Shown here piece after piece: positions 1,700-5,156 of a stretch of DNA of 5,156 nt (the stretch's first letter is position 1; each line of letters opens with the position of its first letter). Below the pieces are notes generated by a model. It had not been told where the DNA came from and made no database searches. It was given only the letters and a program-made list of their open reading frames with translations. A program made the translations under genes and the position numbers. The DNA is from a virus (lineage: Duplodnaviria; Heunggongvirae; Uroviricota; Caudoviricetes): IMG/VR virus record IMGVR_UViG_2740892258_000011; one strand, written 5' to 3'.

Positions 1700-2338
1700 T
1701 TAAATATTTTGTTGAATTTTAAAGCATACGCCCAATATGCAAGATAGATCATCCAGCATAATTGAAGGGTAGCGAGGATTCGTGGGGACTAAAAGAATAT
1801 CCGGCCCTTCTATCTCCAGTTTACGAATGACAGGTGTTGTGGTCCCTTTGGGTAAGGCAAGGACAATATTTCCTGGTTGTACGGTTCGATCGGGATCAAC
1901 AAAAACTGTTGAACCATTTGGGATGGAAACTCCCCCACCAGATGTTGACATACTGTCACTCTCTAGAACAACTGCAAAGGTATTGGCCGGGATTTCTCCG
2001 ACAAGCTGCACACAAGAGGTTATTGAGGAATTTTTCATATAATCACTCCAGCTTGCTGCCTGCTGAAGTGATAGTAGCGGAACCGTTTTTATCGGCGGTA
2101 AAGATAGATCAAGCGAATCACCTGTATTTAACTCTCCTCCATTAAGAAGCCAATTTTCGTTTACTTTCAATATTTTTGCCAGTGAACTTATGTAACGCGA
2201 GGACGGCGCTCCTCCACCGTTCATCCATTGACTTACGGAGCCTTTTGATGCGCCAGTGGCATTGACAAGGTCTTTGCCTTTCAGGTTTAGCGCATGCATA
2301 CGTTGGGTTATGCGTTCAGATATTGTTTGCTTGTTCAT
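1700..2338 (-). CDS. CI-like prophage repressor: N-terminal HTH plus C-terminal LexA/S24-type autopeptidase domain (212 aa)
   Basis: C-terminal half aligns by eye to lambda CI: SDSM vs GNSM (catalytic Ser), VDPDRTVQPGN vs VDPEQAVEPGD, RKL vs KKL (catalytic Lys), NPRYP vs NPQYP. N-terminus has an HTH-like segment (GASKGSVSQWMNG). Divergent from the cro-like gene. Confidence 0.85.
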   Translation of the reverse strand: MNKQTISERITQRMHALNLKGKDLVNATGASKGSVSQWMNGGGAPSSRYISSLAKILKVNENWLLNGGELNTGDSLDLSLPPIKTVPLLSLQQAASWSDYMKNSSITSCVQLVGEIPANTFAVVLESDSMSTSGGGVSIPNGSTVFVDPDRTVQPGNIVLALPKGTTTPVIRKLEIEGPDILLVPTNPRYPSIMLDDLSCILGVCFKIQQNI

Positions 2339-2339
2339 G

Positions 2340-2400
2340 TTTTGATTTTAAAACACAGATGGTTTTGTTTCTTGACTTTCTTTGGTTTTGATTATTAAAC
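2340..2400. promoter_or_regulatory. Divergent PR/PRM control region with candidate operators
   Basis: PR candidate: TTGACT at 2372-2377, with AT-rich -10 candidates at 2392-2400. PRM candidate on the minus strand: TAAAAT (reverse complement of 2345-2350) 6 bp upstream of the CI-like ATG, no Shine-Dalgarno. Repeated motifs TTTTGATTTTAAAAC (2340-2354), AAAAC-N7-GTTTT (2350-2366) and TTTTGATTATTAAAC (2386-2400). Confidence 0.5.
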
Positions 2401-2429
2401 TTTTGGCGTTCAGTTTTATGGAGCGACTC

Positions 2430-2672
2430 ATGAAAAAATCAGAAGTATTAGGCTATTTTGGCGGAGTTGTTAAAACAGCCGCAGCTCTAGGAACGTCAAA
2501 AACCACAGTCAGCATGTGGGGGGAAGAGGTTCCGTGGAAATGGGCGTTGCTAATTCAGGCAGTCACTGCCGGGGCGCTCAAATATGAGTTACACATACCG
2601 ACGGTTGTCATTCCCGGTTCTGATCATAATCCGCCTTCTAACCAAGGGGGGATTCATGAAAATCAAGCATGA
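2430..2672 (+). CDS. Cro-like / YdaS-like HTH protein (80 aa)
   Basis: ATG at 2430 with GGAG 8 nt upstream. MKKSEVLGYFGGVVKTAAALGTSKTTVSMWGEE... has a Cro/YdaS-like HTH pattern (GG...A..LG.S...VS.W). Divergent from CI-like gene. The ORF-track 5' extension from 2382 is judged untranslated. Confidence 0.7.
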   Translation: MKKSEVLGYFGGVVKTAAALGTSKTTVSMWGEEVPWKWALLIQAVTAGALKYELHIPTVVIPGSDHNPPSNQGGIHENQA

Positions 2673-2934
2673 ACACATCCGCATGGCGATGAATGCCTGG
2701 GCGCGTCCTGATGGCGAAAAAGTTCCGGCAGCTGGAATAACCCAGGCTTATTTTGAGTTGGGTATGACGTTTCCTGAACTGTACGACGACAGCCATCCGG
2801 AAGCCCTGGCTCGCAATACCCAGAAAATTTTCCGCTGGATAGAGAAAGACACCCCTGATGCAGTTGAAAAAATTCAGGCGTTGTTACCAGCGATCCCCGC
2901 CACAGGAAGAGACGGTGGTCAGCATTGCCGTTGA
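2656..2934 (+). CDS. YdaT-like / CII-position regulatory protein (92 aa), function uncertain
   Basis: ATG at 2656 preceded by a GGGGGG run; overlaps the cro-like gene by 17 bp. MKIKHEHIRMAMNAWARPDGEKVPAAG.... Family assignment is from memory and position (gene after cro). Confidence 0.45.
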   Translation: MKIKHEHIRMAMNAWARPDGEKVPAAGITQAYFELGMTFPELYDDSHPEALARNTQKIFRWIEKDTPDAVEKIQALLPAIPATGRDGGQHCR

Positions 2935-2956
2935 TCCTGAGTCTCCGGAATCTTTC

Positions 2957-3247
2957 ATGAAACGACCTAAACGTCGCCGCTGGGTTAACGAGAAATACAC
3001 ACGCTGGGTGAAGACACAGCCGTGTGCGTGTTGTGGTAAGCCAGCCGACGATCCCCATCACCTGATTGGTCATGGTCAGGGCGGAATGGGGACAAAATCT
3101 CACGATATTTTCACGCTACCGCTGTGTCGGGAGCATCACAACGAGCTTCATGCGGATCCTCTGGCGTTCGAAGAAAAGCATGGTTCTCAGGTTGATTTAA
3201 TTTTTCGTTTTCTTGATCACGCCTTTGCAACTGGCGTGCTTGGGTAA
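2957..3247 (+). CDS. YbcO-like (DUF1364-type) zinc-binding putative nuclease, 96 aa
   Basis: MKRPKRRRWVNEKYTRWVKTQPCACCGKPADDPHHLIGHGQGGMGTKSHDIFTLPLCREHHNELH.... The pattern CxxC...H.IG.G.GGMGTKSHD...C..HH resembles DLP12 YbcO (HIRLTGLCGTGTKPPD...CSACHDE), which is the same length. Internal ATG chosen over the 2858 start because the N-terminal extension would overlap the upstream gene by 77 bp. Confidence 0.55.
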   Translation: MKRPKRRRWVNEKYTRWVKTQPCACCGKPADDPHHLIGHGQGGMGTKSHDIFTLPLCREHHNELHADPLAFEEKHGSQVDLIFRFLDHAFATGVLG

Positions 3248-3259
3248 AAGAGGTGACTG

Positions 3260-3634
3260 ATGCTCATAGATTTGGTTTTACCTTACCCGCCGACGGTGAA
3301 CACTTACTGGCGACGCCGTGGCAGCACATATTTTATCTCGGAGGAGGGAAAGCGTTATCGCCGGGCTGTGGCGCTTATTGTTCGCCAGCAGCGGCTGAAA
3401 TTAAGCCTGTCCGGAAGGCTGGCGATAAAGGTGATTGCAGAGCCACCGGATAAGCGTCGTCGCGACCTGGACAATATCCTGAAAGCACCGCTGGATGCGC
3501 TGACGCATGCGGGAGTGTTAATGGACGATGAGCAGTTTGATGAAATCAATATCGTTCGTGGTCAGCCAGTATCTGGTGGACGTATGGGGGTGAAGATTTA
3601 CCCCATAATGCATGAAGAGCAGGTCAAAAAATGA
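3260..3634 (+). CDS. rusA: RusA-family Holliday junction resolvase (124 aa)
   Basis: AGAGGTGA RBS before ATG at 3260. ...YPPTVNTYWRRRGSTYFISEEGKRYR...PPDKRRRDLDNILKAPLDALTHAGVLMDDEQ... aligns to E. coli RusA (PWPPSNNRYYRHNRG...PDRRRRDLDNLQKAAFDAL). Confidence 0.85.
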   Translation: MLIDLVLPYPPTVNTYWRRRGSTYFISEEGKRYRRAVALIVRQQRLKLSLSGRLAIKVIAEPPDKRRRDLDNILKAPLDALTHAGVLMDDEQFDEINIVRGQPVSGGRMGVKIYPIMHEEQVKK

Positions 3635-4452
3635 AACTGGAAGATTTACCGAAATACTACTCCCCAAAATCCCCTGGCCTGACCGATGCATCGGCCTCAA
3701 CGTCAAAAGATGCGCTGAGTATCACTGATGTGATGGCCGCGCAGGGCATGACACAGAATCGGGCTGAGATGGGGTTTTCTGCGTTCCTGGGGAAAATGGG
3801 CATCAGTATGAATGACAGGGCGCGGGCAACAGAATTACTGGCAGATTATGCACTCAGTCGGTGCGATCGTGTGGCGGCGTTGAGAAAACTTCCGGCAGAA
3901 ATAAAACCGGTAGTGATGCGCATTATGGCTTCGTATGCGTTTGAAGATTATGCCCGTAGCGCGGCGAGCAAAAAACAGTGCCCTTGCTGTCACGGAAAAA
4001 AATTTATTGAAAGCGAGGTTTTTACAAACAAGATCCAGTATCCGGATGGTAAGCCACCAGTGTGGGCAAAGTGCACAAAAGGCGTGTATCCGTCTTACTG
4101 GGAAGAATGGAAAAAAGTCAGGGAGGTGGTAAAAGTTGCCTGTCCGGAGTGTGGCGGAAAGGGTGAGGTTTCCACCGCCTGTAAGGATTGCCGTGGGCGT
4201 GGTGTCGCCATTCATCGTGAAGAGTCGGTAAAACGTGGTATGCCTGTTATCAGAGATTGCCAGCGTTGTGGTGGTCGTGGCTGTGAAAGGCTGCCATCAA
4301 CGGAGGCATTTAATGCCATATGCAAAGTGACGAGTGCTATCACGCTTGATACGTGGAAAAAATCAGTGAAACGCTTTTACGATACGTTGGTGGTTCGGTT
4401 TGACATTGAAGAGGCATGGGCGGAGCGGCAGTTAAAGAGGGTAACGCGATAG
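3631..4452 (+). CDS. Lambda-family late antiterminator Q with enlarged cysteine-rich region (273 aa)
   Basis: ATGA overlap with the rusA stop. N- and C-terminal blocks match lambda Q: YYSPKSP vs FHSPKSP, ITDVMAAQGM vs GTDVMAAMGM, YAFEDYARSAA vs FAYADYCRSAA, YDTLVV...RVTR vs YDALVV...AVTR. The central region carries four CxxCxGxG-like repeats where lambda Q has two. Confidence 0.8.
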   Translation: MKLEDLPKYYSPKSPGLTDASASTSKDALSITDVMAAQGMTQNRAEMGFSAFLGKMGISMNDRARATELLADYALSRCDRVAALRKLPAEIKPVVMRIMASYAFEDYARSAASKKQCPCCHGKKFIESEVFTNKIQYPDGKPPVWAKCTKGVYPSYWEEWKKVREVVKVACPECGGKGEVSTACKDCRGRGVAIHREESVKRGMPVIRDCQRCGGRGCERLPSTEAFNAICKVTSAITLDTWKKSVKRFYDTLVVRFDIEEAWAERQLKRVTR

Positions 4453-4454
4453 TG

Positions 4455-4500
4455 TTGTTGATTTTTCCCGAATCTGTGGTAAATTTGCTCTAACGATGGG
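4455..4500 (+). promoter_or_regulatory. PR'-like late promoter with qut-like element
   Basis: TTGATT (4458-4463), 16-bp spacer, extended -10 TGgTAAATT (4477-4485). Downstream GGTAAATTTGCTCTAACGATGGG closely matches the lambda PR'/qut sequence GGTAAATTTGACTCAACGATGGG as I recall it. Confidence 0.6.
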
Positions 4501-4534
4501 CGTTTTATGCCTGACGTTAGAAGATTTTTTACAC

Positions 4535-4556
4535 CCCGCCGCCTGGCGGGTTTTTT
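4535..4556 (+). terminator. Rho-independent terminator (tR'-like) about 45-60 nt downstream of the PR' start
   Basis: Stem CCCGCC (4535-4540), loop GCCT, stem GGCGGG (4545-4550), then TTTTTT (4551-4556). Confidence 0.7.
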
Positions 4557-4676: not shown

Positions 4677-4874
4677 ATGCTAAAACAGCAGGATATGACA
4701 GAAACCGCCAGAGTGGTGTTTAATGAATTAAGCGTTACCGACCCGGCGACAGTCGGGGAGATAGCGCAGAATACTTACCTTTCACGCGAACGCTGCCAGT
4801 TAATACTGACTCAGCTGGTTATGGCGGGTCTGGCAGACTATCAGTTCGGTTGTTACAGACGCCTTCCGCAGTGA
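4677..4874 (+). CDS. Small hypothetical protein (65 aa), possible winged-helix DNA-binding fold
   Basis: ATG at 4677 with AAGGA RBS 8-9 nt upstream. The segment VGEIAQNTYLSRERCQLILTQLVMAGLA looks like a recognition helix-turn-helix, loosely reminiscent of PapI/FaeA-type small regulators. No confident homolog recalled. Confidence 0.4.
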   Translation: MLKQQDMTETARVVFNELSVTDPATVGEIAQNTYLSRERCQLILTQLVMAGLADYQFGCYRRLPQ

Positions 4875-4885
4875 AGGCTTTTTTA
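4861..4885 (+). terminator. Rho-independent terminator overlapping the stop codon of the small ORF
   Basis: Stem GCCTTC (4861-4866), loop CGCAGT, stem GAAGGC (4873-4878), then TTTTTTAT. Confidence 0.6.
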
Positions 4886-5024: not shown

Positions 5025-5156
5025 ATGCTTAATACTGTAAAAATATCCAGTTGTGAGTTAATCAACGCCGACTGCCTGGAATTTATCCGGTCGTTACCCG
5101 AAAATTCTGTTGACCTGATAGTCACGGACCCGCCGTACTTTAAAGTGAAGCCTGAG
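5025..5156 (+). CDS. DNA methyltransferase (N6-adenine/N4-cytosine class, DPPY motif), N-terminal 44 codons; truncated by window end
   Basis: MLNTVKISSCELINADCLEFIRSLPENSVDLIVTDPPYFKVKPE. The block SVDLIVTDPPY is the catalytic motif IV, closely resembling YhdJ/phage Dam-like enzymes (SVDLIFADPPY). Weak RBS. Confidence 0.7.
   Translation, partial: MLNTVKISSCELINADCLEFIRSLPENSVDLIVTDPPYFKVKPE

Follow-up and report, generated by a model that had tools for sequence, protein, structure and literature searches.

A long-armed, phi80-like Q antiterminator with four cysteine knuckles and probable tandem zinc ribbons in a lambdoid prophage

The four cysteines in the arm of the lambda Q antiterminator bind one zinc in crystal structures (PMC9388147). 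Residues 1-44 of lambda Q refold with NusA into a torus at the RNA-exit channel (the "nozzle"), residues 110-112, 117 and 122-126 contact the zinc-binding domain of beta', and residues close to the zinc ligands touch the Q-binding element at positions 11-13 (PMC9388147). The Q protein of phage phi80 was compared with that of lambda by Guo and Roberts (J Bacteriol 2004), a work cited in PMC9388147. Here, we describe a Q gene in a window of 5,156 nucleotides (IMG/VR record IMGVR_UViG_2740892258_000011; the window is the whole stretch of DNA that was analysed), in which the following features were recognized:

3260-3634 (+): rusA (Holliday-junction resolvase), upstream neighbour of Q, as in other lambdoid nin regions
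3631-4452 (+): Q antiterminator gene, 273 aa plus stop, with an intact reading frame
3631-3762 (+): N-terminal segment, aa 1-44, homologous to the lambda Q "nozzle" segment (HMMER alignment)

The ATG start codon of Q overlaps the stop codon of rusA (ATGA). We found that the encoded protein matches the Q-lambda family PF03589 of Pfam with 166.1 bits (E=2e-49; curated cut-off 26.7), while PHROG 127 ("anti-termination protein Q-like", 253 positions) covers aa 1-273 with E=1.8e-111. When aligned by HMMER with lambda Q (PDB 7ubm_Q), aa 1-113 correspond to lambda residues 1-113 without gaps (i-Evalue 2.4e-22) and aa 182-273 to lambda residues 116-207. Both the Pfam score and this alignment agree with the initial annotation, made from the sequence alone, which had recognized a lambda-type Q with N- and C-terminal blocks alignable to lambda Q. 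An N-terminal segment homologous to lambda residues 1-60, which are responsible for the torus and flap-tip-helix contacts, is present. AF2 confidence over the nozzle segment (aa 1-44) is low (pLDDT 50-54), as expected, because this segment is disordered when free. G39 is kept, as are L268 and T272, the counterparts of lambda L202 and T206, and the protein has the four-helix body with a helix-turn-helix, of the fold seen in 4mo1. The gene is also placed as in the rest of the family, i.e., after rusA and before a late promoter, pause element and terminator, with lysis genes downstream in relatives. We consider it quite probable that this Q belongs to the common phi80-like subtype with a long arm, that as a standard late-gene antiterminator of the lambdoid kind it would act as lambda Q does, and that its arm would carry two tandem zinc ribbons.

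The arm and its cysteine knuckles are composed of the following parts:

3970-4173 (+): insertion of 68 aa that lambda Q lacks (aa 114-181; HMMER alignment gap), with knuckles 1 and 2 on either side of a long beta-hairpin whose tip loop varies
3979-4002 (+): knuckle 1, CPCCHGKK, aa 117-124, with C117 and C120, and with C119 likewise kept in at least 90% of homologues
4141-4164 (+): knuckle 2, CPECGGKG, aa 171-178, with C171 and C174
4174-4284 (+): lambda-like arm, aa 182-218, a predicted zinc ribbon with strand-helix-strand between knuckles 3 and 4 (HMMER, AF2)
4180-4203 (+): knuckle 3, CKDCRGRG, aa 184-191, with C184 and C187, equivalent to lambda C118/C121
4258-4281 (+): knuckle 4, CQRCGGRG, aa 210-217, with C210 and C213, equivalent to lambda C144/C147

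The four CxxCxGxG-type motifs had been reported before, together with the statement that lambda Q carries just CRDCHGTG and CGRCKGVG. All four are found at the positions then given (the former end coordinate, 4284, takes in Cys218 too), and the two lambda motifs are seen in the alignment. Such a number of motifs is not reached by chance: against the four real C..C.G matches in Q, 20,000 residue shuffles gave one match in 701 cases, two in 7 and three or more in none. No C..C.G motif was detected in the other reading frames of the window. The eight cysteines C117, C120, C171, C174, C184, C187, C210 and C213 are invariant across the alignment (108 sequences, down to 55% identity). Knuckle 1 reads CxCCxGxG in at least 90% of the homologues, as opposed to CPCCHGKK in the window allele, and the CxCC form adds a third conserved cysteine (aa 119; 3985-3987). 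In turn, knuckle 3 takes the form CxC in phi80 Q and in many distant relatives (P0123, P0128 and others; L003 5138-5947). These variants of knuckles 1 and 3 imply that the ligand spacing of both sites varies across the family. A three-knuckle class, which a pattern count had suggested among distant homologues, was rejected, as the alignment shows that their third knuckle is CxC and that they thus have four. The distances between knuckles 2 and 3 (13) and between knuckles 3 and 4 (26, the same as for lambda C118-C144) are constant in all homologues, whereas knuckles 1 and 2 lie 14 to 63 apart, with 54 in the window Q.

The central region had been estimated to be about 65 aa longer than in lambda Q, which is close to the 68 aa of the insert and the 66 aa by which the whole protein exceeds lambda Q. 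Length variation among the homologues is confined to a loop between two conserved flanks, GFIEAEVFTNK after knuckle 1 and REVVRVxC before knuckle 2. The AF2 model (pLDDT 83) predicts, within the insert, a strand at 114-116, knuckle 1, a strand at 125-136, the loop, a strand at 159-170, knuckle 2 and a strand at 179-181. The lambda-like part that follows consists of knuckle 3, a strand at 192-194, a helix at 196-202, a strand at 207-209 and knuckle 4. Here, C184, C187, C210 and C213 align with the lambda Cys4 ligands, and both the spacing of 26 and the predicted strand-helix-strand order match. The arm tip (aa 199-203) corresponds to lambda 133-137, and its Gly203 is invariant. The possibility that the insert is a duplicate of the lambda-like arm is not supported, as hhalign aligned one knuckle alone (10 columns, probability 17%); this lack of a duplication signal counts against two ribbons in tandem.

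Downstream of Q, we recognized a set of lambda-like elements:

4458-4485 (+): putative late promoter PR', with -35 TTGATT (4458-4463), a 16-nt spacer and -10 TAAATT (4480-4485), aligned with lambda PR' and Evi
4485-4500 (+): putative sigma-dependent pause module, with TTGCTC (4485-4490, -35-like), one base, AACGAT (4492-4497, -10-like) and GGG
4535-4556 (+): strong intrinsic terminator (6 G-C pairs, then a run of T), which aligns with those of lambda and Evi

The putative PR' was not called by a simple promoter scanner. In phi80, the Q site is annotated between the -35 and -10 elements. Counted from the -10 element of PR' onwards, the spacing of the pause module is identical to that of lambda TTGACT-C-AACGAT-GGG, and the terminator, located approximately 45 nt downstream of the pause element, would be the target of Q (tR'). 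The leader predicted to arise from PR' (4492-4556, from the start of AACGAT to the terminator T run) spans about 65 nt; the 6S RNA of lambda has about 190 nt. An Rfam scan of the window gave no matches, hence the short leader does not represent a catalogued RNA family. As for the Pas sRNA, considered as a link to the PR' leader, it was dismissed, because the preprint ties nothing to the window locus. Further downstream lie a 65-aa ORF (4677-4874), a second terminator-like hairpin (4861-4878) and the start of a DNA methyltransferase gene (5028-5156, DPPY motif). The same order (small ORF, hairpin, methyltransferase) is found in S88, followed by tRNA-Ile/Arg/Arg and lysis genes. More generally, the late region of related genomes includes methyltransferase, tRNAs, holin and lysozyme, and lysis genes follow Q in Evi, S88 and phi80. 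The methyltransferase/tRNA/lysis order is typical of the late regions of Stx phages.

At the other end of the window, positions 1-620 hold yciU and the 3' end of cls, which are core genes and directly abut the immunity genes of the prophage. The immunity region, 99.9% identical to that of ATCC 11775, encodes a LexA/CI-type repressor of 212 aa (1700-2338, minus strand), divergent from Cro-like and YdaT-like ORFs (2382-2934, plus strand). ATCC 11775 and S88 have about 5.9 kb between the YdaT-like gene/immunity region and rusA that the window lacks (at about 2895-3260), and of a DUF968 gene of 348 aa a 129-aa remnant (2858-3247) is left. The window prophage looks deleted or mosaic.

The likeness of the knuckles to those of DnaJ is real at the level of motifs: as the initial annotation had held, they are of the DnaJ CxxCxGxG kind and four repeats are present, the profile matches being weak. 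Q scores 28.0 bits (E=2.7e-6) against the DnaJ cysteine-rich family PF00684, below its cut-off of 32.7, and 21.9 bits against TIGR02349 (DnaJ_bact), for which the cut-off is 377. The DnaJ cysteine-rich domains 2ctt and 1exk of the PDB are matched with E=0.005-0.015. Anti-TRAP (RtpA, NF058604) is matched with 19.9 bits, against a threshold of 65, over aa 169-193. The precomputed Pfam lists for the homologues do include PF00684, and also PF27659.1. One Serratia homologue (P0033) carries the automatic name "chaperone protein DnaJ" in its source database, probably through misannotation caused by the knuckle motifs.

The arrangement of the zinc sites can be read in two ways, of which two ribbons in tandem, formed by knuckles 1+2 and then 3+4, are the most likely, judging by the AF2 secondary structure, lambda homology and confidence patterns from which zinc binding and pairing are deduced. 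A long hairpin with knuckles 1 and 2 at its ends represents the classic layout of a zinc ribbon and so points to tandem ribbons, while knuckles 3 and 4 repeat the spacing of the lambda Cys4 ribbon and its strand-helix-strand order, which favours two such units. Moreover, when the arm was modelled alone, AF2 confidence was higher near knuckles 1 and 2 (76-81) than near knuckles 3 and 4 (56-61), a split that puts 1 with 2 and 3 with 4. As an arrangement, the double zinc centre of DnaJ type proposed earlier is thus probably wrong. Pairing in the DnaJ cysteine-rich domain is nested (1+4 and 2+3) within a compact V-shaped hairpin, with motifs 3 and 4 binding different zinc ions. For Q to contain a true DnaJ-type domain, the sites would have to be interleaved: knuckles 1 and 4 would make up lambda's site, knuckle 1 being the counterpart of C118/C121, and knuckles 2 and 3 an anti-TRAP-like centre at the tip of the inserted hairpin. 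The sequence before knuckle 1 indeed runs on continuously with lambda, and the pair of knuckles 2 and 3 looks anti-TRAP-like (PDB 2bx9, E=0.03; RtpA, at the 19.9 bits given above); adjacent anti-TRAP knuckles share one zinc, which would suit a 2+3 site. Yet the best DnaJ match of the same pair is to DnaJ motifs 3-4, i.e., to two motifs with separate zinc ions, which agrees with the tandem reading. In the AF2 model, moreover, knuckles 1 and 2 are linked by the long beta-hairpin, and knuckles 3-4 correspond to the lambda ribbon; the segment that follows the knuckle in lambda is homologous to the residues after knuckle 3, not after knuckle 1. We therefore regard interleaved sites as unlikely. It is highly improbable that the insert endows Q with a second activity of the DnaJ zinc-domain type, be it chaperone-like substrate binding or a thiol/zinc redox switch gating the late genes, as might be suggested by the motif-level resemblance to DnaJ cysteine-rich domains, the automatic naming of P0033 and the literature on DnaJ zinc-domain redox activity, which does not concern Q. 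The Pfam scan of Q revealed no J domain and no DnaJ C-terminal domain, the insert alone matches just Q families among PHROGs, and it sits in the arm of a protein in which all other functional segments are kept with lambda Q. A conserved substrate-binding surface is also hard to square with the hairpin tip, which varies and which short-insert relatives lack. Hence, nothing points to a chaperone-like role for the insert, for which a second function had initially been suggested.

Another question is whether this particular copy is functional, as it could be a decaying gene in a defective prophage, the arm features having no present function in this genome. Position aa 218 (4282-4284), right after knuckle 4, is occupied by Cys in the window allele and by Tyr in 106 of 107 homologues, and Tyr is also found in lambda (Y152), phi80, YdfT and the free phage Evi; the change from Tyr218 to Cys, seen only in the window allele, could be a weakening mutation or neutral. 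Together with the deleted-looking prophage, it implies that the window copy of Q may not be fully active. Decay would also be in line with the absence of the approximately 5.9 kb, the truncation of the DUF968 gene and the finding that no complete E. coli genome has the window contiguously. However, the reading frame is intact with all eight knuckle cysteines kept, the identical allele occurs in many ExPEC genomes, and PR', the pause element and the terminator are intact. Departures from strongly conserved columns are no more frequent than in close relatives, numbering 12 in this protein, compared with 14 in both P0002 and P0003. On balance, decay appears a possible but rather doubtful explanation, and we retain the reading of Q as a standard, long-armed antiterminator.

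For such an antiterminator, the key segments of lambda Q (the nozzle, G39/L202/T206, the helix-turn-helix body and the arm tip) are all kept and accompanied by PR', the pause element and the terminator, which leads us to assign the standard Q mechanism. Q would bind the Q-binding element in the PR' spacer just downstream, by means of its helix-turn-helix body and zinc-ribbon arm, and would engage an RNA polymerase held at AACGAT, the sigma-dependent pause element. With NusA, aa 1-44 would refold to form the nozzle at the RNA-exit channel, which would let the polymerase pass the terminator at 4535-4556 and transcribe the late genes. The insert of 68 aa would form a second zinc ribbon, directly preceding the lambda-type ribbon of knuckles 3 and 4, with knuckles 1 and 2 clamping the base of the long beta-hairpin. 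Since the insertion enters between lambda residues 113 and 116, the additional ribbon and hairpin would have to lie at or beside the beta'/DNA interface. Most likely, the insert stiffens or enlarges the contact surface at the base of the arm, a role suggested by its position; that it adds an unrelated activity is unlikely, and since the hairpin tip is variable, a conserved additional binding site at that place is not favoured. The extra ribbon and hairpin might also change the docking of Q on the paused polymerase, through extra DNA or beta' contacts, a different NusA dependence or a zinc/redox-sensitive step, but we see only a slim chance of this. If docking were indeed changed in the phi80-type majority, lambda would be an atypical model for its own family. 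From the structure of a loading complex with a phi80-type Q, one would see whether its larger arm touches the beta' zinc-binding domain, sigma region 4 or DNA in a different way.

We determined that the long-armed subtype is widely distributed. The Q gene (at least 80% identity) is present in 2,495 of 5,426 complete E. coli genomes (46%), and many ExPEC strains (S88, NU14, ATCC 11775) encode a 100% identical protein, annotated as "antitermination protein". A protein search returned 599 relatives; among the matches listed, none of the 107 full-length ones (55-95% identity; Escherichia, Salmonella, Klebsiella, Enterobacter, Citrobacter, Serratia and others) has lost any of the eight knuckle cysteines. 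Of 249 records with a match in the phage collection, 131 align with Q in one piece and hence carry the insertion, among them Evi (97% identical), mEp237, ST104, Stx2c phages and Fels-1; for lambda, P22, HK022 and related phages, the match is split in two. When representatives of 50%-identity clusters (190-300 aa long) were compared, 29 had four knuckles and 6 had the two of lambda. Four knuckles are thus the usual state of the Q-lambda family and lambda's two the minority. What the initial annotation had taken for an unusual replacement of lambda's arrangement is not unusual, considering these representatives, phi80 Q, YdfT, Evi and nearly half of the E. coli genomes. The subtype is widespread and includes phi80 Q, and the protein thus simply belongs to a known, standard subfamily of Q, an outcome that the initial annotation had itself named as refuting its reading. 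RefSeq contains the exact protein with an annotation, and this, along with its presence in nearly half of the complete E. coli genomes, makes the discovery value small. The four-knuckle subtype is already known, and the gap is one of characterisation, not of discovery. In the open literature (searched for quuQ/ydfT, PF03589/PF00684, Q with zinc and DnaJ, and phi80 with zinc), we found no paper on the four-knuckle arm and no experiment on the window Q protein. Likewise, no four-knuckle arm was found among PDB sequences and folds, the sole Q match being the short-armed Q of lambda. To our knowledge, structural and mechanistic work on the Q-lambda family has all been done with lambda Q, i.e., with the minority two-knuckle arm.

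CxxCxGxG knuckles are common to Q, the DnaJ domain and anti-TRAP, and DnaJ also contains four copies per polypeptide. The knuckles of DnaJ are compactly spaced, roughly 17/22/14, unlike the 54/13/26 of Q, which are embedded in a DNA- and RNAP-binding arm with a predicted tandem topology in contrast to the nested one of DnaJ. Anti-TRAP is a stand-alone protein of about 53 aa, whereas the matched stretch in Q is internal to 273 aa. Lambda Q (PDB 4mo1, 7ubj-7ubn) has no equivalent of aa 114-181, its arm comprising 39 residues versus about 105 in the window Q, and its leader RNA is longer (about 190 nt, compared with about 65 nt). The K-12 protein YdfT/QuuQ (b1559, Qin cryptic prophage, 250 aa) is 44% identical and has four knuckles in the same order, with a shorter hairpin and CGRCNGNR as the last knuckle. 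The Q protein of phage Evi (VUF53504), 97% identical and with four knuckles in the same order, is encoded upstream of working lysis and terminase genes. As for phi80, its Q (gp17, YP_007947979, 269 aa) shows 39% identity over the full length, the insertion included, with four knuckles of the same order and spacing and the common hairpin sequence VFTNK..YP.GKPP.W.....PS.WE.W...REVV.V.C. It differs in knuckle 3, which is CxC (CRCHGKG) instead of CxxC. The phi80 locus has the same layout, composed of Q, PR' with the Q site between -35 and -10, terminator and lysis genes, yet the sequence of its promoter spacer is unlike that of the window, and the DNA specificity of the two proteins presumably differs.
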